In this document: piece by piece, positions 1 to 39,567 of the stretch | Layout of the letters: each line of letters begins with the position of its first letter | Numbering within the stretch: the stretch's first letter is position 1 | Sequence record: AY692264.1 | Length of the DNA: 64,000 nucleotides | Strand: one strand, 5' to 3' | DNA from: Escherichia phage T5 | The notes under the pieces: generated by a model | What the model was told of the DNA's origin: nothing | Databases searched by the model: none | Seen by the model: the letters and a program-made list of their open reading frames with translations, nothing else | Made by a program: the position numbers and the translations under genes

Positions 1-29
1 GGGATTTCTCCTCATCAATTTATATAAAT

Positions 30-58
30 ATTATAACAAGAAATTAAGCATTAAGCAA
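30..58 (-). promoter_or_regulatory. sigma70-type promoter (leftward)
   Basis: Reverse complement TTGCTT-17-TATAAT. Confidence 0.5.
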
Positions 59-83
59 CTGCGTTTTTGAAATTTCTTGGACT

Positions 84-157
84 TGGTACTCGGTGATAGA
101 ATCGAACTATCACAACCGCCGTGTAAAGGCGGGGTTCTCCCATTATACTAACCGAGC
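84..157 (-). tRNA. tRNA-Val (anticodon TAC)
   Basis: Reverse complement folds as cloverleaf: acceptor GCTCGGT/ACCGAGT (G1-U72), anticodon stem CCGCC/GGCGG with loop TTTACAC, T-arm GATAG-TTCGATT-CTATC, CCA encoded. Confidence 0.6.
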
Positions 158-164
158 AAAAATT

Positions 165-242
165 TGGTGGGTTGCACAGGACTCGAACCTGTAACCTATG
201 GTTTAAAAGACCAGTGCTCTAAACCAGTTGAGCTAGCAACCC
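165..242 (-). tRNA. tRNA-Lys (anticodon TTT)
   Basis: Reverse complement: acceptor GGGTTGC/GCAACCC, D-arm GCTC..GAGC, anticodon loop CTTTTAA, T-arm ACAGG-TTCGAGT-CCTGT, CCA encoded. Confidence 0.6.
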
Positions 243-410
243 TTAGTAACCATTATATACTTCTTTAATAGTATGGACTTTCAAATAAAGGTGATTAGTA
301 CTAAACTCCGCCATTACTTCTTTTTCATTTTTTCCATAATGTGCAAGTAAGGATTTTGATGTATTCTTACCTAAACGTTTGTCACTTACTACTAATCGAA
401 ATACTTTCAT
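243..410 (-). CDS. hypothetical small protein (~55 aa, MKVFRLVVSDKRLGK...)
   Basis: Hand-found ORF below track threshold; AGAGGA Shine-Dalgarno 8 nt upstream of ATG; abuts tRNA-Lys. Confidence 0.3.
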   Translation of the reverse strand: MKVFRLVVSDKRLGKNTSKSLLAHYGKNEKEVMAEFSTNHLYLKVHTIKEVYNGY

Positions 411-430
411 TTCGAAATCCTCTATTAAAA

Positions 431-508
431 TGGAAGCGGGTGCAGGAATCGAACCTACCTCTTTCTAGCTTATGAGACTAGCGATCTCTACCAGAGATCT
501 AACCCGCA
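431..508 (-). tRNA. tRNA-Met or Ile2 (anticodon CAT)
   Basis: Reverse complement: D-arm GATC..GATC, anticodon stem CTAGT/GCTAG with loop CTCATAA, T-arm GTAGG-TTCGATT-CCTGC, CCA encoded; position 1-72 mismatch. Confidence 0.55.
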
Positions 509-514
509 ATTGTT

Positions 515-591
515 TGGTCTCCAATGAAGGACTCGAACCTTCAACCCCACCGCCCCAAACGGTGTACTCTAGCCAATTGAGCTAATCGGAG
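515..591 (-). tRNA. tRNA-Pro (anticodon TGG)
   Basis: Reverse complement: acceptor CTCCGAT/ATTGGAG, anticodon stem CACCG/CGGTG with loop TTTGGGG, T-arm GAAGG-TTCGAGT-CCTTC, CCA encoded. Confidence 0.6.
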
Positions 592-786
592 AAAATTATT
601 TCTTCAGCCACAACATGCTTAATCCTAGCATTGTAAAGCCTGTACTTAATCCTATTACCTTTTCTATCATAGAAAAGTTATCTATGTTAAATCCTACTAT
701 TACTATAGGGATAACCCAAGTACACATGAATACTGATGCAATTTTATACTTCACTTAGCTTTCCTTCTCTTCACTTTATAAGATAT

Positions 787-815
787 ATTATACAGAGAAT
801 TAAGCATAATAGCAA
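787..815 (-). promoter_or_regulatory. sigma70-type promoter, likely driving tRNA-Pro/Met/Lys/Val
   Basis: Reverse complement TTGCTA-17-TATAAT. Confidence 0.55.
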
Positions 816-964
816 CTACATTTTTCATAAATTTACTTATTGTGTAGGCCACCTGGAGGCTACCAACCCCACGGCTGACAAAGAAGTTTGCGAGACTTCT
901 CTTAAAAGCCAGAATAGACCCGCCGATCTATCGGAACCTACATAATAAGTAAACTTTATAGTGT

Positions 965-1085
965 CATCCTAGACAGGATTCGAACCTGCTATCACTTGTG
1001 CGGACTTACGAGAACCATTCTTTCACTCGAATCGAACGAGCTTCTGCCCTCGCCAAGTTGGTTTCCCCATCAACCACGCTAGAAT
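965..1085 (-). ncRNA. atypical tRNA-like element (~120 nt) with two T-arm-like hairpins
   Basis: 3' part has canonical T-arm GCAGG-TTCGAAT-CCTGT plus acceptor strand CTAGGAT; the only complementary 5' strand (ATTCTAG) is 120 nt upstream; a second hairpin GCTCG-TTCGATT-CGAGT lies inside; does not fit a canonical 73-93 nt tRNA. Confidence 0.3.
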
Positions 1086-1207
1086 GTTAGATTGTTTTCA
1101 GTGCAAGAGTCCGAGTCTTGGACACGACCGCTTCGCAAGTACATAGGCAGCTTATCATGAGTCAGCACTTCCGAATTGCTAGCTCCGTGTTCTGCACTGA
1201 AATTTTA

Positions 1208-1555
1208 TTAGTTTAACCGTAAAGTATTATCTACTTCACCATTAATTGTTCGGCACTCCTCTGGGATTGCCGGAGTGGCCTTGTATTCCCACCACTCAGC
1301 ACCATCATATTCCCCACGTTCTAGCCAAGTTCCGTCGGCAAACCATACATTACCATAAAGTAATTGTCCACCGTATCCAGAATCATATTCAAAGTCTAGG
1401 TTATCAAGAAAATCCTCAATATCTTCTTCTGTATAACCTAAAGGTAATACCCAAACTTTTTTATCCCCATAATACCCGAATTCTATTTTAATACACTTAA
1501 CTTCAGAATTAGTATTTTTTAAGGCAAGTAACAGCTCTTCTTTGGCATTACGCAT
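1208..1555 (-). CDS. hypothetical protein (115 aa from internal Met)
   Basis: Track ORF 1208..1642 trimmed to MRNAKEELL start so it does not overlap tRNA-Asp. Confidence 0.45.
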   Translation of the reverse strand: MRNAKEELLLALKNTNSEVKCIKIEFGYYGDKKVWVLPLGYTEEDIEDFLDNLDFEYDSGYGGQLLYGNVWFADGTWLERGEYDGAEWWEYKATPAIPEECRTINGEVDNTLRLN

Positions 1556-1580
1556 AGTATATTCCCATACTGAATTAATT

Positions 1581-1657
1581 TGGCGCGACCGATGGGATTT
1601 GAACCCACATTCTCTCCCGTGACAGGGGAGTACCATTACCAAGCCAGCCCCGGTCGC
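1581..1657 (-). tRNA. tRNA-Asp (anticodon GTC)
   Basis: Reverse complement: acceptor GCGACCG/CGGTCGC, anticodon stem CTCCC/GGGAG with loop CTGTCAC, T-arm GTGGG-TTCAAAT-CCCAT, CCA encoded. Confidence 0.65.
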
Positions 1658-1666
1658 ATAATTTAT

Positions 1667-1846
1667 TTACTCAGCTTTGAGTTGTGATTTCAACCAGTTA
1701 GTAAACCCCAGCTCAGTTACGCAATCTTTATCAATACGTTGCAGGTCTCCTAGAACCGTACTTAGATGCTTAACTGATACAGCGTCACCACTTTTGCGAG
1801 CAGCTTCAATCAACTCTCGCAGTACATAAAGCATATTCATGCCCAT
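1667..1846 (-). CDS. hypothetical small protein (59 aa, MGMNMLYVLRELIEAARKSGD...)
   Basis: Hand-found ORF; start overlaps stop of upstream small ORF (TAATG). Confidence 0.4.
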   Translation of the reverse strand: MGMNMLYVLRELIEAARKSGDAVSVKHLSTVLGDLQRIDKDCVTELGFTNWLKSQLKAE

Positions 1847-30107: not shown

Positions 30108-30994
30108 GTCGAATAACAGAATTACTTGATCTTAAGGGAATTGAGTATAAAGATACTGGTGGAGATATTTTAATCTGTTGTCTCAATCCAGATCATGACG
30201 ATAAACACCCAAGTTTGCGTATTGACCCTGAAACAGGTATTATGCACTGCTTGAGTTGTGGCTTCGGTAAAGGTATACCGAGCATTTACCATTATTTTAA
30301 TGAGACTCAGTACCGACAGTCCCCAAGGCTATCGCAAGTACGTAAAAAGATTTCAGAGATTAGGAATGGATCAACGAATCTTGCAATTCCTGAATCTGCT
30401 TACCTTTTCGAAGGTGATTTCCGAGGTATAAGTTCTAAGACCTTGAAGAAATATTTTGCTTTCCAACACCAAGCAGACTGGGAAGGCAGAATTGTATTCC
30501 CAATCACAGATGCTGTTGGACGCAATATCCTATTTTTGGGTCGTTCTATAAACAGTTCTGCCCCTCCTAAATACTTAGTAAAACCAAAACAAGTTTCACC
30601 ACCAATTTTTCCTGTACGATATAATACTCCGGTTCTTATTCTAGTTGAAGGCATCTTTGATATGCTGAACCTAGAGGATAATGGTATAGACTATGCTTCT
30701 TGCTGCTTTGGTACACATCAGTTTACTTCGGATAACATTGCAGATAAGTTCAGTCCTTATATTATTGCCGGTGTAAAAATTGTTGTTATCTTACTAGATA
30801 ATGATGCTTCTGGTAATAAAGCTGCACAAGCATTGGCCAAGCTAATTCGTACAAAAACGCGTTTAACACCTGTAGTTGCTAACTTTCTTCTGCCTGAAGG
30901 TAAAGACCCGGGTGACTTAAATAAAGAAGAGATTGATACGTTAGCAAAACGTATTGAAATTTTAGTTGCTGAATCGCTTAAAGATTTGGTATAA
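30104..30994 (+). CDS. DnaG-like DNA primase
   Basis: Zinc ribbon CLNPDHDDKHPS...HCLSCG; TOPRIM motifs LVEGIFD and LLDNDASG. Confidence 0.8.
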   Translation: MSRITELLDLKGIEYKDTGGDILICCLNPDHDDKHPSLRIDPETGIMHCLSCGFGKGIPSIYHYFNETQYRQSPRLSQVRKKISEIRNGSTNLAIPESAYLFEGDFRGISSKTLKKYFAFQHQADWEGRIVFPITDAVGRNILFLGRSINSSAPPKYLVKPKQVSPPIFPVRYNTPVLILVEGIFDMLNLEDNGIDYASCCFGTHQFTSDNIADKFSPYIIAGVKIVVILLDNDASGNKAAQALAKLIRTKTRLTPVVANFLLPEGKDPGDLNKEEIDTLAKRIEILVAESLKDLV

Positions 30995-30995
30995 T
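30965..30995 (+). promoter_or_regulatory. candidate promoter for DNA polymerase
   Basis: TTGCTG-19-TATAAT; non-optimal spacer. Confidence 0.35.
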
Positions 30996-31056
30996 ATATT
31001 GGTAAGTTAGAGAAGAAACACTGAAGTTATACTTACTTACCAAGAGGAGATTAAAT

Positions 31057-33624
31057 TTGAAAATCGCAGTAGTTGATAAAGCTCTAAACAACACTCGTTA
31101 TGATAAACATTTCCAGCTATACGGCGAGGAAGTTGATGTATTCCATATGTGTAACGAGAAGTTGTCCGGTCGTTTGCTCAAAAAGCATATTACTATCGGA
31201 ACTCCGGAAAACCCATTTGACCCGAATGATTATGATTTTGTTATACTGGTAGGTGCCGAACCTTTCCTGTACTTTGCAGGTAAGAAAGGTATTGGTGATT
31301 ATACCGGTAAACGTGTAGAGTATAATGGATATGCTAACTGGATTGCGAGTATCAGCCCAGCCCAGTTACACTTTAAACCTGAAATGAAACCAGTTTTTGA
31401 TGCAACAGTAGAGAATATCCACGATATTATCAATGGTCGTGAGAAGATTGCAAAAGCTGGTGATTACCGTCCTATTACTGACCCTGATGAGGCTGAAGAA
31501 TATATCAAGATGGTGTATAATATGGTTATCGGACCCGTCGCATTCGACTCCGAAACCTCAGCACTATACTGTCGAGATGGTTATCTGCTTGGTGTTTCTA
31601 TTTCTCACCAAGAGTATCAGGGTGTATATATCGATTCTGATTGTCTCACAGAGGTTGCAGTATATTATCTCCAGAAAATTCTGGATAGTGAAAACCACAC
31701 TATTGTTTTTCACAACTTGAAGTTTGATATGCACTTTTATAAGTACCATCTGGGACTTACTTTTGATAAAGCACATAAAGAACGCAGGCTCCATGATACC
31801 ATGTTGCAGCACTATGTTTTAGATGAACGTCGTGGTACTCATGGCTTGAAATCTCTAGCAATGAAGTATACCGATATGGGTGACTATGACTTCGAACTAG
31901 ATAAGTTCAAAGATGATTACTGTAAAGCACATAAAATCAAGAAAGAAGATTTCACCTATGATTTAATTCCGTTTGATATTATGTGGCCATATGCTGCGAA
32001 AGATACGGATGCCACTATACGTTTGCACAACTTCTTTTTACCAAAAATTGAGAAGAATGAAAAACTTTGCAGTCTGTATTACGATGTTTTGATGCCTGGT
32101 TGCGTATTCTTGCAACGTGTTGAGGATCGTGGAGTACCTATCTCTATTGATCGTTTGAAAGAAGCTCAGTATCAGTTGACTCATAATTTGAATAAAGCCC
32201 GTGAGAAACTGTACACTTATCCAGAAGTTAAACAGCTAGAACAAGATCAGAATGAAGCATTTAACCCGAACTCTGTTAAGCAGCTACGTGTTCTTCTGTT
32301 TGATTACGTTGGCTTAACTCCAACAGGTAAACTGACGGATACTGGAGCAGATTCTACGGATGCAGAAGCTCTAAATGAACTGGCTACGCAGCATCCAATT
32401 GCTAAAACTCTGCTAGAGATTCGTAAGCTGACTAAGCTGATCTCTACTTATGTTGAGAAGATTCTACTGAGTATTGATGCAGATGGTTGCATTCGTACTG
32501 GTTTCCATGAACATATGACTACTTCTGGTCGTCTGAGTTCTTCTGGTAAACTGAACCTGCAACAGTTACCCCGTGATGAATCTATTATCAAGGGTTGTGT
32601 AATAGCTCCTCCTGGGTATCGTGTAATCGCGTGGGACTTAACAACTGCGGAAGTTTATTATGCTGCTGTTCTATCTGGTGATAGAAATATGCAACAGGTA
32701 TTTATCAACATGAGAAATGAACCCGATAAATACCCAGACTTCCACTCCAACATCGCACACATGGTGTTTAAGCTGCAATGCGAACCCCGTGATGTTAAAA
32801 AGCTGTTCCCAGCTCTGCGTCAGGCTGCTAAAGCAATCACCTTCGGTATTCTGTATGGTTCTGGCCCAGCTAAAGTAGCGCATTCTGTTAACGAAGCATT
32901 ACTAGAACAAGCAGCCAAGACGGGCGAACCGTTTGTTGAATGTACTGTTGCAGATGCTAAAGAGTACATTGAGACTTACTTCGGTCAGTTCCCACAGCTT
33001 AAGCGTTGGATTGATAAGTGCCACGATCAGATCAAGAATCATGGATTTATCTATAGTCACTTTGGTCGTAAACGTCGTCTGCATAATATCCATTCCGAAG
33101 ACCGTGGTGTTCAGGGTGAAGAAATTCGTTCTGGATTTAATGCAATCATTCAGTCTGCTTCTTCTGATAGTCTCCTTTTAGGTGCTGTAGATGCAGATAA
33201 TGAGATCATTTCTCTTGGTTTAGAACAAGAGATGAAGATTGTTATGTTGGTTCATGACTCCGTAGTTGCTATTGTTCGTGAGGATTTGATCGACCAATAC
33301 AATGAAATCCTGATTCGTAATATTCAGAAAGACCGTGGTATCAGTATTCCTGGCTGTCCGATTGGTATTGATTCAGATTCTGAAGCTGGAGGTTCTCGTG
33401 ACTATTCTTGTGGTAAGATGAAGAAACAGCACCCATCAATCGCTTGTATTGATGATGATGAATATACTCGTTATGTCAAGGGTGTATTACTTGATGCAGA
33501 ATTCGAGTATAAGAAACTAGCTGCAATGGATAAAGAGCATCCAGATCATAGCAAATACAAGGATGATAAGTTTATTGCTGTATGTAAAGATTTGGATAAC
33601 GTGAAAAGGATTCTCGGTGCTTGA
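31057..33624 (+). CDS. family A DNA polymerase with 3'-5' exonuclease domain
   Basis: 855 aa; Exo I DSETSALY; Pol motif B RQAAKAITFGILYGSG; motif C LVHDS. Confidence 0.9.
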   Translation: MKIAVVDKALNNTRYDKHFQLYGEEVDVFHMCNEKLSGRLLKKHITIGTPENPFDPNDYDFVILVGAEPFLYFAGKKGIGDYTGKRVEYNGYANWIASISPAQLHFKPEMKPVFDATVENIHDIINGREKIAKAGDYRPITDPDEAEEYIKMVYNMVIGPVAFDSETSALYCRDGYLLGVSISHQEYQGVYIDSDCLTEVAVYYLQKILDSENHTIVFHNLKFDMHFYKYHLGLTFDKAHKERRLHDTMLQHYVLDERRGTHGLKSLAMKYTDMGDYDFELDKFKDDYCKAHKIKKEDFTYDLIPFDIMWPYAAKDTDATIRLHNFFLPKIEKNEKLCSLYYDVLMPGCVFLQRVEDRGVPISIDRLKEAQYQLTHNLNKAREKLYTYPEVKQLEQDQNEAFNPNSVKQLRVLLFDYVGLTPTGKLTDTGADSTDAEALNELATQHPIAKTLLEIRKLTKLISTYVEKILLSIDADGCIRTGFHEHMTTSGRLSSSGKLNLQQLPRDESIIKGCVIAPPGYRVIAWDLTTAEVYYAAVLSGDRNMQQVFINMRNEPDKYPDFHSNIAHMVFKLQCEPRDVKKLFPALRQAAKAITFGILYGSGPAKVAHSVNEALLEQAAKTGEPFVECTVADAKEYIETYFGQFPQLKRWIDKCHDQIKNHGFIYSHFGRKRRLHNIHSEDRGVQGEEIRSGFNAIIQSASSDSLLLGAVDADNEIISLGLEQEMKIVMLVHDSVVAIVREDLIDQYNEILIRNIQKDRGISIPGCPIGIDSDSEAGGSRDYSCGKMKKQHPSIACIDDDEYTRYVKGVLLDAEFEYKKLAAMDKEHPDHSKYKDDKFIAVCKDLDNVKRILGA

Positions 33625-34114
33625 TTTCAAATTGCCCGTCTATGCGTTACGGGCGTTTGTATCAATTGAGCAAGAAGGTGATTATTCCGTAATTACAACA
33701 AGATATAATAAATATGTGCTAGATAACAGGAAGTTGCCTGGCACGTTTTCTCAACGTAGGCTTATTCTATTTGAGAAACGGAAAGAATTACCATACAAGC
33801 TCTATCCTATTAGGGGTAGAATATCAATGTTGTCTCAATTAGTTGGGTCAAAGCGTAACCAATTTATAGATTCTGATGGAAATCTTATTAATTGGAAGAA
33901 AACTACGTTCTATGATGTTGTCACCTCTAAAGTTTTGCATTCAGCTAGAATTTATAATGGAAAATACCAATGCTATGTGGCTAAAGTCCCTTATCCATTT
34001 GTATTATCCTATGTTCCAGCTTATATAAGCTATATTCTGGTAAATAATAGCCCTGTTATTTATCAAGTCCATCAAGAGGAGCCTGAAATTCCTAGACTTA
34101 GAATAAAATTATGA
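33617..34114 (+). CDS. hypothetical protein
   Basis: GTG start overlapping polymerase stop; an alternative ATG at about 33827 has a GGGGT RBS. Confidence 0.45.
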   Translation: MLDFKLPVYALRAFVSIEQEGDYSVITTRYNKYVLDNRKLPGTFSQRRLILFEKRKELPYKLYPIRGRISMLSQLVGSKRNQFIDSDGNLINWKKTTFYDVVTSKVLHSARIYNGKYQCYVAKVPYPFVLSYVPAYISYILVNNSPVIYQVHQEEPEIPRLRIKL

Positions 34115-35463
34115 AGGTTGTTATATCTAATAAAGCCTATTTCAAGCCCGATGATGAACTTTGGGATTATTGTAGTAAGCAAACCACTTATCACATAGAG
34201 ACAATGACTAGTAAATACCCTATTATGTATAAGAATAGTGGTGTTGTTGCCAAAGAGATTAAGTGGATTCCTATTACGCGTCTGGACTTATTAGATGCTA
34301 AAGGAATAAAATACGAATTAGTCGATAAACGCACACTAGCACCGGTAGATATACCAAAACCTAAGTTCAAGCTGCGTGAAGAAGATCAGCTTCCAATATA
34401 CGAAGAATGCGATGATACCTGTATTATTAATGGTAAGCCTGGGTTTGGTAAAACTATCCTAGCACTTGCACTTGCGTATAAATTTGGCCAGAAAACTTTA
34501 GTAATCTGTACGAATACATCCATTCGTGAAATGTGGGCGGCAGAAGTTCGTAAATGGTTTGGGTTTGAACCAGGTATCATAGGTTCTGGGAAATACAATA
34601 TTGATCCGCCAATTGTAGTCAGTAATATTCAAACAGTGAATAAACATGCGAATAATCTTTCTAAAGTATTCGGTACTGTTATAGTTGATGAAGTTCACCA
34701 TTGTGTGGCTACAACTTTCACTAACTTCCTAGAAATATCATGTGCTCGCTATAAAATTGGACTATCCGGTACACTAAAACGAAAAGACGGTTTACAAGTT
34801 ATGTTCAAAGATTTCTTTGGATATAAGATATTTAGCCCGCCGGTTAATAATACTGTTGCACCTACAATCCATAGGTACTCCGTGCCTGTTGAGCTATCAG
34901 GAAACCAAAACGTACCGTGGGCATTACGTGCTAACGATGTGTATAATCATCCTGAATATCGAGAGACTATTATAAACCTAGCACATTTATATGTGAATAT
35001 GGGACATAAAGTACTCATTGTAAGTGATAGAACAGAGTTAATCCAAACAATACTAGAAGCTTTTACACAGCGTGGTGTTACAACCTATGAAATTATAGGA
35101 GCAACCCACTTAGATGACCGATTAAAAATTCAGGAAGATATAGCAAAAGGCGGGCCGTGTGTGCTTGCAGCAGCTCAAAGCATCTTCTCTGAAGGTATTT
35201 CACTTAACGAGCTGTCTTGTTTAATAATGGGAAGCCTCATTAATAATGAATCTCTCATTGAACAGCTTGCAGGCCGTGTTCAACGTATTGTCGAGGGTAA
35301 ACTCGACCCAATCGTTGTAGATCTAATTATGAAAGGTGGCACTGGGTTAAGGCAGGCTTCTGGACGTATGGCAGTATATCGTAACAACGGGTGGAAAACT
35401 ATTACTATGACTCCGGAGAAAGCAGTTCAATTAGCTAAAATTGCATTTGGCAACAGCTCATAA
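34111..35463 (+). CDS. SF2 DEAH-box helicase (T5 D10-like)
   Basis: 450 aa; Walker A GKPGFGKT, motif II VDEVHH. Confidence 0.8.
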   Translation: MKVVISNKAYFKPDDELWDYCSKQTTYHIETMTSKYPIMYKNSGVVAKEIKWIPITRLDLLDAKGIKYELVDKRTLAPVDIPKPKFKLREEDQLPIYEECDDTCIINGKPGFGKTILALALAYKFGQKTLVICTNTSIREMWAAEVRKWFGFEPGIIGSGKYNIDPPIVVSNIQTVNKHANNLSKVFGTVIVDEVHHCVATTFTNFLEISCARYKIGLSGTLKRKDGLQVMFKDFFGYKIFSPPVNNTVAPTIHRYSVPVELSGNQNVPWALRANDVYNHPEYRETIINLAHLYVNMGHKVLIVSDRTELIQTILEAFTQRGVTTYEIIGATHLDDRLKIQEDIAKGGPCVLAAAQSIFSEGISLNELSCLIMGSLINNESLIEQLAGRVQRIVEGKLDPIVVDLIMKGGTGLRQASGRMAVYRNNGWKTITMTPEKAVQLAKIAFGNSS

Positions 35464-35546
35464 ATGATGTATAATATATACATAAATTTGAGAGAGAAAG
35501 TTTCGGATTGATAAGAAAGTCCGAAGCAGAAAAATAAAAATTTTAG

Positions 35547-35576
35547 TTGCTAAATTCTCTCGAAATCTAGTATAAT
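35547..35576 (+). promoter_or_regulatory. sigma70-type promoter
   Basis: TTGCTA-18-TATAAT; a second TATAAT box lies ~100 bp upstream at about 35470. Confidence 0.55.
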
Positions 35577-35683
35577 ATATACATAAATTCGAGGAGAAAA
35601 CAAAAATTAAATTCTTCGATTATGAAAAGCTATACTTACTAGCTAGAGGAAATTCCGACCTAATTATTAAGCTATTCAAAAGA

Positions 35684-35968
35684 ATGCTTACAGAGCCTGA
35701 TGCTCACCAATTATTGGTCGGTTCCTCATTCATTTTGAATGAATCAACAATAGTTGATAATCCAAATAAATTGTCTAATAGGCAACTGGCAGAATATCTA
35801 GGAATTTTAAGTCTACGAAATTATGCCGAATACAAGTTTACAAACGATCCTAGTTTGGACATACAATATGTTCCAGTATGGATACCACGTTTAGTAATCG
35901 ACACTAACCCACTAATCGCAATTAACAAATCGAAATTAATCTTTAAAGAGGAAATAAAATATGGCTAA
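35684..35968 (+). CDS. hypothetical protein (94 aa)
   Basis: ORF downstream of a consensus promoter; no clear RBS at the ATG. Confidence 0.4.
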   Translation: MLTEPDAHQLLVGSSFILNESTIVDNPNKLSNRQLAEYLGILSLRNYAEYKFTNDPSLDIQYVPVWIPRLVIDTNPLIAINKSKLIFKEEIKYG

Positions 35969-36734
35969 GTCTTGGGGCGAAACTACTGGCGGTTCTAACG
36001 ATAAAATCGAATTCCTGAAGTTCAACAACGGTATCACTCGTGTTCGTATCGTTTCTGGTGTTCTTCCACGTTATGTCTATTGGCTGACTAATAAAGAGGG
36101 TAGCGTAGCTCCTTTCGAATGTCTCCGTTTTAACCGTGACAAAGAGAGCTTTGTTCGTGGTAAAGCTGATCCGGTTCATGAGTTGGGCTTCTTTGAGAAA
36201 GAGCTGGATAAAGATGGCAATCGTGTACCGCTGAAACCGAAGAAAAACTATATCGCTTTTGTTATCGACCGTTCTGATAACAAACTGAAAGTAATGGAAG
36301 TCAAAGCTACTATTCTGAAAGGCATCCAGTCTATCATGAAGCAGTTGAATCTGGCAACTCCGTTTGATATTGATATTTCTATCGAGAAAAAAGGCAAAGG
36401 TTTCGATACTGAGTATGATGTACAGCAGATTGCTGCTATGCAGTTCCAGATTAAGCTGCAAGATCCTAACAGTGCAGAATCTAAGCAATATGCTGCAGAT
36501 GTAGATCTGATTGGTGAAGCTATGTGTGACGAAGATGGCGACATCATTAAGTTCGAGAAAGTTCCTTCTCTGGAACAAACCTATCCGGTTCCTACCTATG
36601 AAGAGCAGAAAGAAGCAATTCAAGCCTTCATGGAAGGTCGTGAGAATAAAGATGACGATGCCAAGTCTGGTAACAGCAATGCTGGTTCTCAGAAAGGTAT
36701 TGACCAGGAAGCTGCAAGCGATCTGGATGACTAA
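35961..36734 (+). CDS. putative ssDNA-binding protein (acidic C-terminal tail)
   Basis: 257 aa; AAAGAGGAAA RBS; acidic C-terminus ...EAASDLDD typical of SSB-type proteins; function inferred. Confidence 0.5.
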   Translation: MAKSWGETTGGSNDKIEFLKFNNGITRVRIVSGVLPRYVYWLTNKEGSVAPFECLRFNRDKESFVRGKADPVHELGFFEKELDKDGNRVPLKPKKNYIAFVIDRSDNKLKVMEVKATILKGIQSIMKQLNLATPFDIDISIEKKGKGFDTEYDVQQIAAMQFQIKLQDPNSAESKQYAADVDLIGEAMCDEDGDIIKFEKVPSLEQTYPVPTYEEQKEAIQAFMEGRENKDDDAKSGNSNAGSQKGIDQEAASDLDD

Positions 36735-36740
36735 TAAATA

Positions 36741-36766
36741 GAGGGGCTTCGGCCCCTTTCTTTTTA
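36741..36766 (+). terminator. rho-independent terminator
   Basis: Hairpin GAGGGGC-ttcg-GCCCCTT followed by TCTTTTT. Confidence 0.7.
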
Positions 36767-36770
36767 ATAT

Positions 36771-37748
36771 ATGAGAATATTATTTAGTGCTGATCATCAT
36801 ATCAAACTAGGACAAGATAAAGTTCCAAAGGAATGGCAGAAGCGTCGCTTCCTGATGCTAGGAGAACGGTTAAATGATATATTCCATAATCATAACTGTG
36901 ATCTTCATATTGCTGGTGGTGATATACTTGATGTTGCCGACCCGTCGTCAGAAGAAATAGAACTGCTTGAACAGTTCATGTCAAGACTTGACCATCCAGG
37001 CAAAATTTTTACTGGAAATCATGAAATGTTAACTAAAACCATTTCGTGTCTGTATCATTACGCAGGGGTTATTAATAAAGTAACTAGTGGGAAGTGGGAA
37101 GTAATTACCAAACCATATCGTTCCCCTGAATTTGATATTGTTCCGTATGATGAGATCCATAAAGCTAAGTGGAAACCTCCGGTATCAAAACTATGTTTCA
37201 CGCATGTTCGTGGTGAAATCCCTCCACATGTAAAACCAGAAATTGATCTAACTAAGTACAACTGTTATGATACTGTAATTGCTGGCGATTTACATTCTTA
37301 TACTAATAGCCAGACTATCGGATCTACTAGACTCCTCTACCCAGGGTCTCCATTAACTACATCGTTCCATAGAGAACGCACAAAAGGTACAAATGGTTGC
37401 TTTATTATTGATACCGACACATTAAAAGTAGAATGGATTGAACTAGGTGATTTACCACAACTGATTCGTAAAACAATCGGAGCAGGTGAAGAGATGGAAC
37501 CTAGTGATTATGATCGTGTAGTCTACGAAGTTACTGGTGACGTTGTTCAATTAAAGTCTATCAAAGACTCTGATTTATTAGATAAGAAGATTAACCATCG
37601 AGTTACTAAAGACGCTAAGTTAAATCTTGTTGATCTTGATATGTTAGGTGAACTTGAACTTTACTTCCGTGAAGTCGAGAAGCTATCTCAAGGCGACATT
37701 GATAGAATCTTGGCTAGAGCTGCGAAATATGTCAAAGATTACAATTAA
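36771..37748 (+). CDS. SbcD/Mre11-like nuclease
   Basis: Calcineurin-like phosphoesterase motifs DHH, GGDILD, GNHE. Confidence 0.85.
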   Translation: MRILFSADHHIKLGQDKVPKEWQKRRFLMLGERLNDIFHNHNCDLHIAGGDILDVADPSSEEIELLEQFMSRLDHPGKIFTGNHEMLTKTISCLYHYAGVINKVTSGKWEVITKPYRSPEFDIVPYDEIHKAKWKPPVSKLCFTHVRGEIPPHVKPEIDLTKYNCYDTVIAGDLHSYTNSQTIGSTRLLYPGSPLTTSFHRERTKGTNGCFIIDTDTLKVEWIELGDLPQLIRKTIGAGEEMEPSDYDRVVYEVTGDVVQLKSIKDSDLLDKKINHRVTKDAKLNLVDLDMLGELELYFREVEKLSQGDIDRILARAAKYVKDYN

Positions 37749-39567
37749 GACACTAAAATTTAGTAACGTTATGTCTTACGGTAAGGACATCGTAATTCAT
37801 TTCGATAAGAATCCAGTTACTCAACTAATTGGGGGCAATGGGCTAGGGAAATCCACCATCGCTACGGTTATCGAGGAGTTGTTTTATAACAAGAACTCTC
37901 GAGGTATCAAGAAGGATGCATTGTTCTCTTGGAATGCCCCTAAGAAAGAATACGATATGCACGCTTACTTCTCAAAAGATGAAGATGAGTATGAATTGCA
38001 TAAAGTAGTTAAATCAACTGCTAAAGTTACACTCATTAAGAATGGAGAAGATATTAGTGGGCATACGGCAACCCAAACATATAAGATGATTGAAGAGATT
38101 ATGGGTGGTGACTTTCAAACATTCACCAAACTAATTTATCAATCAGTGGGTTCCAACCTAGATTTTCTAAAAGCAACGGATGCAACACGTAAGGCTTTTC
38201 TTGTTAACTTGTTCAATCAAGAGCAATACAAAGAAATGTCGGAAACTATTAAGGCTGACCGTAAAGAAATAGCAAATACCTTAAATAATTTGCAGGGCCA
38301 GATGGCTGTAATTACGAAAATCCTTAATGGGAAAAATAATCTAGGAACTTTGCAGGAACCTGTAGAAGTACCGGAGTTTGATGAAGAGCCATTAGCACAA
38401 GAACTTACTGAATCGAAAATTAAGGCGGCATTAGCCAAGTCTCAAGAGGCTAATATTACTAAGTTGCGTAATTTGGACAAAGCTGTACAAGTTGCCGAAC
38501 AATCTTTCGAACCTTTCAAAAATTTGCCCGCGCCCACCGACCAAAATGAAGAGATCTCGAGTGTTACGCGTGACCTAACGATTGTGACCTCACGTGCGAG
38601 CGAAGTTAAGAAACGTTATCAGAAGTTCAAGCAAGAGGCTTCAAATACTGAATGTCCTACTTGCGGTACTCATCTGGATACAACTGCTGCTCAAAAAGCC
38701 ATGGATATGGCTAGAGTAGAATATGATCCTCTGTTCAAAGAGAAGCAATCTCTTGAAGCTAAGCTAGAACAGTTGAAGAAAGAACAACTTGAGTACGTTG
38801 CGTATACTAGAGCAAAGGATGCTTTGGATAAAGCAGTGGTAGCTAGAGACGAGTTCAAAAATTCAATGAGTGATGCTTCTTTTGAAGAACTCAATGTGCA
38901 AATCCTACAGGTGCAAATCCGACAATTAGAGCAGGAAATCGCTGATGGCCGTTCTAAGGTTGCAATTGCCAAAGAGCATAATGCAACTGTCGAATTAGCC
39001 AATGCAAAATATAAAGCAAAGCTAGAACAGATTGAGAAAGCAGAAGCAGAAATGACTGAGATTACCTCCAAACTGGATGGAGTATCAGAAGCTGTTGCTG
39101 ATCTCGATATTCTAATTGCTGCATTGAAAAATCTGGTGGGGTATAAACTAGAGCATAGTGTGAAAGTATTTGAAGAGCTAATTAATAAATATCTTTCTAT
39201 TATGACTGGCGGTAAATTCGCACTTGGATTTGAACTTGATGAAACAAAATTACAAGTAGTAATCTTCAATGATGGAAATCGTACCAGTATGGAGAACTGC
39301 TCTACTGGTCAGCAAAGTCGAATTAATCTAGCAACCCTGTTAGCTATTCGGATGCTGTTAACATCTATTAGTAAAGTTAATATTAATCTTCTATTCCTTG
39401 ATGAAGTAATTAGCTTTATTGATACGAAAGGACTTGATACTCTCGTTGAACTATTAAATGAGGAAGAAAGTCTAAATTCTATCATTGTTTCTCATGGGCA
39501 TACGCATCCATTAGCTCATAAGATTACTGTCAAAAAAGATGCAGAAGGATTTTCCTACTTAGAATAA
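37729..39567 (+). CDS. SbcC/Rad50-like ATPase
   Basis: Walker A GGNGLGKST, coiled coil with CPTCG zinc hook, C-terminal LFLDEV; start moved to MSKITIK (track start 37648). Confidence 0.85.
   Translation: MSKITIKTLKFSNVMSYGKDIVIHFDKNPVTQLIGGNGLGKSTIATVIEELFYNKNSRGIKKDALFSWNAPKKEYDMHAYFSKDEDEYELHKVVKSTAKVTLIKNGEDISGHTATQTYKMIEEIMGGDFQTFTKLIYQSVGSNLDFLKATDATRKAFLVNLFNQEQYKEMSETIKADRKEIANTLNNLQGQMAVITKILNGKNNLGTLQEPVEVPEFDEEPLAQELTESKIKAALAKSQEANITKLRNLDKAVQVAEQSFEPFKNLPAPTDQNEEISSVTRDLTIVTSRASEVKKRYQKFKQEASNTECPTCGTHLDTTAAQKAMDMARVEYDPLFKEKQSLEAKLEQLKKEQLEYVAYTRAKDALDKAVVARDEFKNSMSDASFEELNVQILQVQIRQLEQEIADGRSKVAIAKEHNATVELANAKYKAKLEQIEKAEAEMTEITSKLDGVSEAVADLDILIAALKNLVGYKLEHSVKVFEELINKYLSIMTGGKFALGFELDETKLQVVIFNDGNRTSMENCSTGQQSRINLATLLAIRMLLTSISKVNINLLFLDEVISFIDTKGLDTLVELLNEEESLNSIIVSHGHTHPLAHKITVKKDAEGFSYLE

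Follow-up and report, generated by a model that had tools for sequence, protein, structure and literature searches.

RNA2 of phage T5, a tRNA-derived RNA with a conserved module in place of the anticodon loop, and its phage family

The DNA studied here, a stretch of 64,000 nucleotides (nt) from Escherichia phage T5 (sequence record AY692264.1; hereafter the window), carries on its minus strand, at positions 962-1086, the T5 gene rna2, an object already known, whose 125-nt product, RNA2, is derived from a transfer RNA (tRNA). RNA2 consists of a complete tRNA body and an insert module that occupies the place of the anticodon loop, a description whose structural steps can be stated with high confidence. 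The RNA is probably non-decoding, with the insert as its functional site, and the best explanation, to which a probability of about 0.5 is given, is that of a phage-specific, non-decoding, tRNA-derived stable RNA whose insert binds a factor that recognises tRNA.

The locus had been flagged in an earlier note, drawn up from the letters of the sequence, as an atypical tRNA-like element with two T-loop hairpins. This is structurally right, and all the parts described there are present, on the minus strand; that the element is an annotated RNA of T5 went unrecognised. In a BLAST-type comparison, window 600-1683 is 100% identical to three phage T5 records (AY543070, NC_005859 and AY587007) and corresponds to AY543070 32597-33680, where the misc_RNA rna2 (32959-33083, 100% identical to window 962-1086) has the product text "tRNA-like stable RNA with unknown functions". 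The same gene is annotated in the record of phage BF23. No plausible open reading frame (ORF) lies over the region. RNA2 is thus annotated in both T5-group public records checked, and in almost every phage record listed in similarity searches the family to which it belongs either has no annotation or has hypothetical ORFs placed over it. Full-text literature searches found no paper describing RNA2 or its family; the family-wide structure, the breadth of its distribution across phages and its absence from Rfam appear to be undescribed in the literature searched.

RNA nt p corresponds to window position 1087-p (nt 1 is window 1086 and nt 125 is window 962), the sequence from 5' to 3' is CAUUCUAGCGUGGUUGAUGGGGAAACCAACUUGGCGAGGGCAGAAGCUCGUUCGAUUCGAGUGAAAGAAUGGUUCUCGUAAGUCCGCACAAGUGAUAGCAGGUUCGAAUCCUGUCUAGGAUGACA, and all the following coordinates refer to the minus strand. 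The outer parts of RNA2 make up a class I tRNA body, with a 7-base-pair (bp) acceptor stem, a D arm with GG in its loop, a 5-bp anticodon stem, a variable loop of 4-5 nt and a T arm; the arms of this cloverleaf have conserved spacing, and covariation is found in all four stems. The 5' strand of the acceptor stem, AUUCUAG (nt 2-8, window 1079-1085), pairs with the covarying CUAGGAU (nt 115-121, window 966-972), from which it lies about 113 nt upstream, as had been supposed for a distant acceptor partner; across the family, seven of the seven pairs have changed on both sides and 87% of the alignment cells are paired. In addition, the C at window 1086 (nt 1) is able to pair with the G at 965. The D arm, UGGUU-GAUGGGGA-AACCA (nt 11-28, window 1059-1076; helix strands 11-15 and 24-28), covaries in all five pairs, and some relatives have the textbook D arm GCUCAGUUGGUAGAGC. 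The equivalent of the anticodon stem is formed by ACUUG (nt 29-33, window 1054-1058) and CAAGU (nt 89-93, window 994-998), with covariation in five of five pairs (for example, CUUG/CAAG, CCAU/GUGG and CCUC/GAGG). GAUA (nt 94-97, window 990-993) matches the tRNA variable loop by its position in model alignments, and it is followed by the 3' T arm already recognised in the earlier note, GCAGG-UUCGAAU-CCUGU (nt 98-114, window 973-989), with three covarying and two invariant G-C pairs and 95% of cells paired.

The RNA ends in a discriminator-like G (nt 122) and ACA (to nt 125; together window 962-965) in place of N-CCA. The five tRNA genes found in window 84-1657 all encode CCA, unlike RNA2 (G-ACA). 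Ends of the G-CCA or U-CCA type are encoded in some relatives, CCA being present in UTK0010, in L013 and in a divergent second copy in contig L202. Since a few members do encode CCA, a tRNA-like 3' end may matter in part of the family.

Between the two strands of the anticodon stem, T5 RNA2 has 55 nt that replace the 7-nt anticodon loop and that comprise, in this order, a junction, helix P2 (GGGY/RUCC), helix P3 (G43-C77 plus one or two covarying pairs), a second T arm, a return strand and the motif UCCGCA. The 5' junction, GCGA (nt 34-37, window 1050-1053), is variable, with a consensus N-C-K-A by base composition. The 5' strand of P2, GGGC (nt 38-41, window 1046-1049), pairs with GUCC (nt 82-85), which together with the junction GCA (nt 86-88) occupies window 999-1005; G38-C85, G39-C84 and G40-U83 are nearly invariant, and pair 41-82 covaries (CG 20, UA 18, UU 16). 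C84, C85 and A88 are invariant, G86 is found in 50 of the 55 distinct sequences of the family and C87 in 51. A single unpaired A42 (window 1045) separates the 5' strands of P2 and P3. The strands of P3, GAA (nt 43-45, window 1042-1044), assigned from mutual information and pair counts, and CUC (nt 75-77, window 1010-1012), assigned from pair counts, include G43-C77, present in 54/55 sequences, pair 44-76, which covaries (AU 23, UA 15, GC 6, UG 2, CG 1), and pair 45-75, formed in 25/55. P3 has been defined on the grounds that pair 44-76 covaries and G43-C77 is near-invariant. The inner T arm, GCUCG-UUCGAUU-CGAGU (nt 46-62, window 1025-1041), also recognised earlier as a T-arm-like hairpin, has a covarying stem (99% of cells paired) and an invariant loop, G-UUCRAUU-C. 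The return strand, GAAAGAAUGGUU (nt 63-74, window 1013-1024), contains G71 and G72 (window 1016-1015) in 55/55 sequences and U70 in 48/55. Lastly, a GUAA bulge between P3 and P2 (nt 78-81, window 1006-1009) is conserved, with G78 in 54/55 sequences and U79, A80 and A81 in all of them.

In an alignment of 26 sequences, 18 of the 24 invariant columns fall in this insert (G50, U51, U52, C53, A55, U56, U57, C58, G71, G72, C77, G78, U79, A80, A81, C84, C85 and A88), and the other six in the 3' T arm. The scaffold stems are almost wholly different between lineages yet keep their pairing, while the sequence of the module is nearly constant. The module, and not the tRNA scaffold, is the most conserved part of the RNA and is under the strongest selection, a pattern that is the opposite of what would be expected for an intron or a pseudogene.

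Six helices were taken from the T5 sequence and projected onto a plain MAFFT alignment of those 26 sequences, which is blind to structure. Of its cells, 81.9% are paired, versus 61.3% in shuffles, and the covariation score is 0.499 versus 0.173, the observed score being reached by none of 500 shuffles; registers slid by 1-3 columns score 0.154 at most. In the model-based alignment of the 55 distinct sequences, the corresponding values are 90.6% versus 62.7% of cells paired and 0.645 versus 0.171 (again 0/500 shuffles), with slid registers at 0.126 or below. This second alignment was fitted to the structure, and the MAFFT result is its independent control. Mutual information returns the same pairs as the top couplings, plus pair 44-76, and the coupled columns 9-16, 9-96 and 16-96 map to the area of the tRNA tertiary core. 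A comparison by eye of T5, BF23, two Epseptimavirus members, Pectobacterium phage My1, Serratia phage Slocum and an Acinetobacter phage fragment likewise shows that every stem has undergone compensatory changes.

Other pairings considered for the centre of the molecule were not retained. The central helix 35-41/72-78 of the minimum-free-energy (MFE) structure (ViennaRNA) has no compensatory support, and pairing between the junction strands (36-87, 37-86, 35-88) is unsupported; a hairpin 63-65/73-75 around UGG is ambiguous, in that a register slid by one column scores equally. Separately, nt 38 and 86 switch jointly in the 55-sequence alignment, being G/G in 50 sequences and A/A in five, all of them in the Acinetobacter-type or a related group; in four of these five, C87 has become U. 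This concerted, non-Watson-Crick change may reflect a base triple or a shift in the register of the junction.

The tRNA origin of RNA2 is also evident in comparisons with tRNA models. The family covariance model matches the ordinary tRNAs of the same loci with 20-35 bits, skipping its central ~65 positions, and the Rfam tRNA model (RF00005) scores above its gathering threshold on two relatives, L173 (50.6 bits) and L137 (47.9 bits), aligning all its 71 positions end to end, with 51 and 56 nt, respectively, replacing the anticodon loop. Among the interpretations offered earlier, that of a tRNA with an insertion is therefore structurally right.

Standard tools do not find RNA2 in T5. With default settings, ARAGORN calls five ordinary tRNAs in window 84-1657 and makes no call at RNA2, and a search of window 962-1086 against Rfam gives no match at gathering thresholds, nor any at E<=10, RF00005 included. 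The absence of a covariance-model hit had been named beforehand as an outcome that would speak against the element. Such an absence is formally what Rfam returns for T5, but it is misleading, because Rfam has no family for this RNA; with the family model built here, T5 scores 132.6 bits over exactly window 962-1086. The MFE of T5 RNA2 (-37 kcal/mol, ViennaRNA) has a z of only -0.87 against shuffles. Thermodynamics alone do not single out RNA2, and it is conservation and covariation that show it to be no product of chance.

The family was collected by scanning IMG/VR, metagenomes and a set with a single genome for each prokaryotic species for a sequence pattern; the matches were filtered with the covariance model (R1), which removed about three quarters of the raw matches as ordinary tRNAs or coding sequence. 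In this way, 75 matches were obtained, corresponding to 55 distinct sequences; true members score 45-136 bits, are 117-135 nt long and have identities down to ~60%. A similar sequence is found by BLAST in 436 phage records, and in Epseptimavirus, whose genomes are more distant, the similarity starts at window 1088-1094 and stops at 963, that is, within a few nt of the ends of RNA2. The comparison with the tRNA regions of T5-like phages proposed in the earlier note bore fruit: RNA2 is conserved there and well beyond. The carriers include T5-like phages (Demerecviridae) of Escherichia, Salmonella, Pectobacterium, Serratia, Providencia and Proteus, among them Providencia phages PSTCR5 and PR1 and Proteus phages Stubb and PM135, as well as Pantoea phage AAS21, the T4-like Acinetobacter phage 133 (160 kb) and uncultured phage contigs of 50-363 kb. 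In the prokaryotic set (one genome each of 185,579 species), a single true member was found among 55 pattern matches, and the 167-kb contig in which it lies, with several tRNA-like matches, is probably a phage. The family is phage-specific and essentially absent from bacterial genomes. The second copy in the metagenomic contig L202 (5110-5228) is divergent (39 bits), with an intact acceptor stem, an encoded A-CCA end and GGUAUGUGUGC instead of CGUAAGUCCGCA; the RNA class probably includes still more distant variants.

Taking into account the tRNA origin of RNA2, it has to be asked whether it decodes. The 7-nt anticodon loop of a tRNA, in which U33 precedes the anticodon and position 37 is a purine, is missing from RNA2, which would be unable to read codons. 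Removal of nt 35-82, as a short intervening sequence, would give the sole 7-nt loop obtainable by deletion, N-U-CCG-C-A, and RNA2 would then be a decoding tRNA-Arg(CCG). A relaxed ARAGORN run (introns allowed, threshold 80%), one of the checks suggested beforehand, indeed produces a call, tRNA-Arg(ccg) interrupted by an intron of ~45-58 nt, both for T5 RNA2 and for over half of the remaining distinct members tested; UCCGCA is almost invariant, and the Rfam tRNA model also places the insert of the relatives in the anticodon loop. The call is nonetheless judged a by-product of the invariant UCCGCA, on several grounds. In tRNA, position 37 is a purine, whereas the restored loop has C37, and the intron would fall at 32/33. 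Two bases of the "anticodon", C84 and C85, take part in P2 pairs, and the same ARAGORN run reads other members as Trp(CCA), Pro(AGG), Gly, Ser and others. A20 in the D loop is the main identity element for arginyl-tRNA synthetase, but canonical-looking members have U or C at that position. Group I self-splicing introns have 200 nt or more and a P1-P9 core; the insert has 48-58 nt and gives no match to the Rfam family Intron_gpI at E<=10. Nor did inspection of the covariation model reveal a bulge-helix-bulge motif (two 3-nt bulges on opposite strands of a 4-bp helix): GCA lies at the proximal end of the 4-bp P2 on the 3' strand, the 5' strand at the distal end offers only the single unpaired A42, and there are unpaired nt on both strands at both ends. 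We know of no 50-nt splicing system in bacteria. Moreover, the insert is more conserved than the presumed exons, GenBank lists a 125-nt stable RNA, T5 encodes ACA and not CCA, and some lineages have no convincing acceptor stem. An intron-containing tRNA is thus very unlikely.

As regards function, the module contains elements from which a mode of action can be proposed. The T loop of tRNA is defined by a G-C pair closing the loop, U-U-C, a purine and A, all of which are kept in the inner T arm. The invariant GG beside this loop suggests the arrangement of the tRNA elbow, in which G18-G19 contact positions 55-56, and, to judge from these motifs, the return strand would be a D-loop-like partner of the inner T loop, its UGG docking there in the manner of G18-G19 of tRNA and giving rise to a second "elbow". 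This elbow would cap a stack of about 12 bp that extends the anticodon arm and is formed by P2 (4 bp), P3 (~3 bp) and the T stem (5 bp). This is suggestively the length (~12 bp) of the acceptor/T-arm stack, the distance from the elbow that is gauged by RNase P and other enzymes (PMC4919913). Because RNA2 is tRNA-shaped and lies inside tRNA operons, the machinery of tRNA maturation (RNase P, 3' trimming) would excise it and render it stable, and its two T loops probably carry the modifications usual in tRNA. The conserved module would then bind a factor recognising the shape of tRNA, RNA2 acting as a decoy, a competitor or an adaptor.

Such a binding role fits, because the T5 tRNA region is dispensable and known for anti-defence tRNAs. 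A viable deletion of T5, T5Mos, extends from 30661 to 38625 and spans rna2, the T5 tRNA-Lys of the same region neutralises PARIS and the T5 tRNA-Tyr counters retron Eco7 (PMC11464382); the region holding rna2 is dispensable in the laboratory. Anti-defence phage tRNAs have altered anticodon arms that make them insensitive to host nucleases (PMC11464382). RNA2 resembles tRNA-Lys (PARIS) and tRNA-Tyr (retron Eco7 PtuAB) in its location in this region, but these are functional decoders that replace cleaved host tRNAs, whereas RNA2, which probably cannot decode, could act only by binding, as decoy or adaptor. A decoy in host takeover or anti-defence is put forward as a tentative proposal; its targets may be a tRNA-targeting immune nuclease or a tRNA-modifying toxin that reads the shape and not the anticodon. 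In a bolder form, which we regard as rather doubtful, RNA2 would be the first representative of a phage RNA class that is widespread and as yet unclassified, its members serving as second-elbow decoys or sponges against a tRNA-directed host factor, or holding a ligand pocket. The latter alternative starts from the invariant junction (GUAA, UCCGCA, GGG and the T loop), which could capture a small molecule. If either the decoy or the pocket were true, phage tRNA islands would carry an RNA-only anti-defence device. Many phages keep this probably non-decoding tRNA mimic, and counter-defence tRNAs are known in such regions, which makes RNA2 a candidate RNA-based factor of host takeover or anti-defence.

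Several points weigh against the proposal of a stable RNA that binds a tRNA-recognising factor. Under nearest-neighbour rules, the covariation-supported fold of T5 (-26 to -30 kcal/mol) is 7-11 kcal/mol less stable than the MFE structure (-37 kcal/mol), and it is therefore likely that tertiary contacts contribute or that the model of the junction is incomplete. The docking of UGG and the 12-bp stack are read from sequence motifs. Some lineages, namely the L040 group and the Acinetobacter-type group, have a weak acceptor stem or none, and the function may therefore not need a tRNA-like 3' end. The sole source of the label "stable RNA" is the GenBank annotation. Finally, the decoy is one of several roles of a binding type that fit.

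Three further explanations were considered. RNA2 might be what is left of a tRNA gene that decayed or of two that fused, with no function of its own, as was contemplated earlier under the name of a fused or degenerate tRNA pair. Its two T arms, the failure of standard tRNA finders, the ACA tail instead of CCA and the deletion-prone region could all be taken in this sense, but the RNA behaves as one covarying unit whose insert is the best-conserved part. Very different phages, with 55 distinct sequences among them, share its architecture, every helix showing compensatory changes and nucleotides foreign to tRNA (GUAA, UCCGCA, UGG) being invariant throughout; the synteny tRNA-Lys - RNA2 - tRNA-Gly is kept in distant Demerecviridae, and identities down to ~60% argue against an alignment of recent horizontal copies. 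Decay or fusion is, in consequence, hardly credible. It could also be thought that the 55-nt module is a selfish or mobile insertion into tRNA anticodon loops, the RNA being a mere carrier, which would account for a module far more conserved than the surrounding scaffold, for the GIY-YIG Seg-like homing-endonuclease genes nearby in seven lineages and for the second, divergent copy in L202. Every matched contig but that one, however, has a single copy, no pairs of empty and filled sites were seen, and N-C-K-A, GCA and the lengths of scaffold stems and loops are common to the family. These shared junction nucleotides and scaffold lengths point to one ancestral RNA and not to repeated insertions into different tRNAs; to our knowledge, there is no mobility mechanism for a 55-nt RNA module, and this origin is considered very improbable.

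The last of these explanations has RNA2 act in cis, and not in trans, on the processing or stability of the polycistronic tRNA transcript (for example, as an entry point for RNase P or RNase E, or as 3' protection). The RNA always lies within tRNA arrays, often a few nt from the neighbouring tRNAs; where the acceptor stem is missing, its ends would be set by the processing of the neighbours, and no intrinsic terminator was found near RNA2. On the other hand, an invariant 55-nt module far exceeds what a processing signal needs, ordinary tRNAs already supply such signals and the T5 and BF23 records list it as a discrete stable RNA, so this role appears unlikely.

RNA2 has been compared with other RNAs that borrow the shape of tRNA, and it lies outside the groups of tmRNA (transfer-messenger RNA), YrlA, T4 rnaC/rnaD and intron-containing tRNA. 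With canonical tRNA (RF00005) it shares all the arms, the class I spacing and the location in tRNA operons, and relatives pass the Rfam threshold; unlike tRNA, it has the ~55-nt module where the 7-nt anticodon loop should be, lacks both the U33/R37 context and a usable anticodon, and, in T5, encodes ACA and is missed by ARAGORN with default settings and by Rfam. The tRNA-like domain of tmRNA is, likewise, a tRNA mimic without anticodon-arm function that is matured like tRNA, but RNA2 keeps the full D arm and anticodon stem and has neither a tag reading frame nor a pseudoknot ring; ARAGORN reports no tmRNA, and matches to the Rfam tmRNA family (RF00023) do not go beyond 15-nt fragments. YrlA (RF02553), which occurs in some phages, is also a non-coding RNA with a tRNA-mimicking domain (T and D arms). 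It ends in a Ro-binding stem and its acceptor is a closed hairpin, whereas RNA2 has tRNA ends and its extra module is on the anticodon stem. RF02553 has no match in T5 and reaches 21.6-23.8 bits, with partial overlap, in the loci of two relatives (threshold 69), and no link to a Ro/Rsr gene was seen in the family neighbourhoods. TruB and DusA modify the tRNA-like domain of YrlA, RNase P cleaves it and CCA is added to it (PMC4201824), which provides a precedent for the maturation of RNA2 by the tRNA machinery.

The species 1 and 2 RNAs of T4 (rnaC and rnaD) are small stable RNAs at the end of a phage tRNA cluster, and rnaC, like RNA2, has a tRNA-like T arm and a closing stem; both are devoid of the module with GUAA, second T arm and UCCGCA. 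With filters off, rnaC scores 20.6 bits with the family model, the level of any tRNA, and rnaD gives no match. Compared with these other tRNA mimics as a whole, RNA2 differs in keeping a complete tRNA body and tRNA-like ends, with a second T-loop module at the place of the anticodon.

In T5, RNA2 is located in the early tRNA region, between T5.067 and RNAIV and upstream of P13a, an annotated promoter. The genomes of Epseptimavirus and My1 have tRNA-Lys(CUU) directly upstream of it and tRNA-Gly directly downstream; T5 has neither of these tRNAs at those positions, and a non-coding spacer of 120 nt (window 1087-1207) separates T5.067 from RNA2. In Acinetobacter phage 133, the relative of RNA2 fills the gap between tRNA-Gly and tRNA-Cys. 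No protein gene is a consistent neighbour of the family; the only recurring ones are the GIY-YIG Seg-like homing endonuclease genes mentioned above and a YqeY-like protein (PF09424, E = 6.5e-16) near the RNA in three uncultured lineages (L039, L049 and L139).

Other small RNAs of the region have been examined as possible relatives. Downstream of RNA2, at a distance of 18 nt, comes RNAIV (window 841-943), annotated as "stable RNA with unknown functions", which also ends in ACA; it has a multi-branch MFE structure (-37.7 kcal/mol, z = -2.85 against shuffles) closed by UGUAGG.../...CCUACA. It is not a relative of RNA2, the family model giving no match on the sense strand and only 3.9 bits on the antisense strand. 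RNA2H, a 172-nt annotated stable RNA of T5 (AY543070 31808-31979; L001 712-883) just outside the window, is not a paralogue despite its name (5.6 bits). In the reference (L001 2781-2853), rna3, a "putative tRNA-like RNA", and further tRNA genes follow tRNA-Asp; rna3 scores 11.1 bits with the family model there and was also rejected. In the window, where it would be at 1880-1952, rna3 is absent, lying beyond a deletion junction. The window and the T5 reference are not colinear: window 1-1683 corresponds to AY543070 31998-33680, and the sequence from 1674 onward to 41879 onward. The ~8.2-kb deletion in the tRNA region, with its junction at window ~1674-1683, just past tRNA-Asp, has left RNA2 in place, and, because of this jump in the reference, the sequenced DNA looks like that of a T5 deletion strain.

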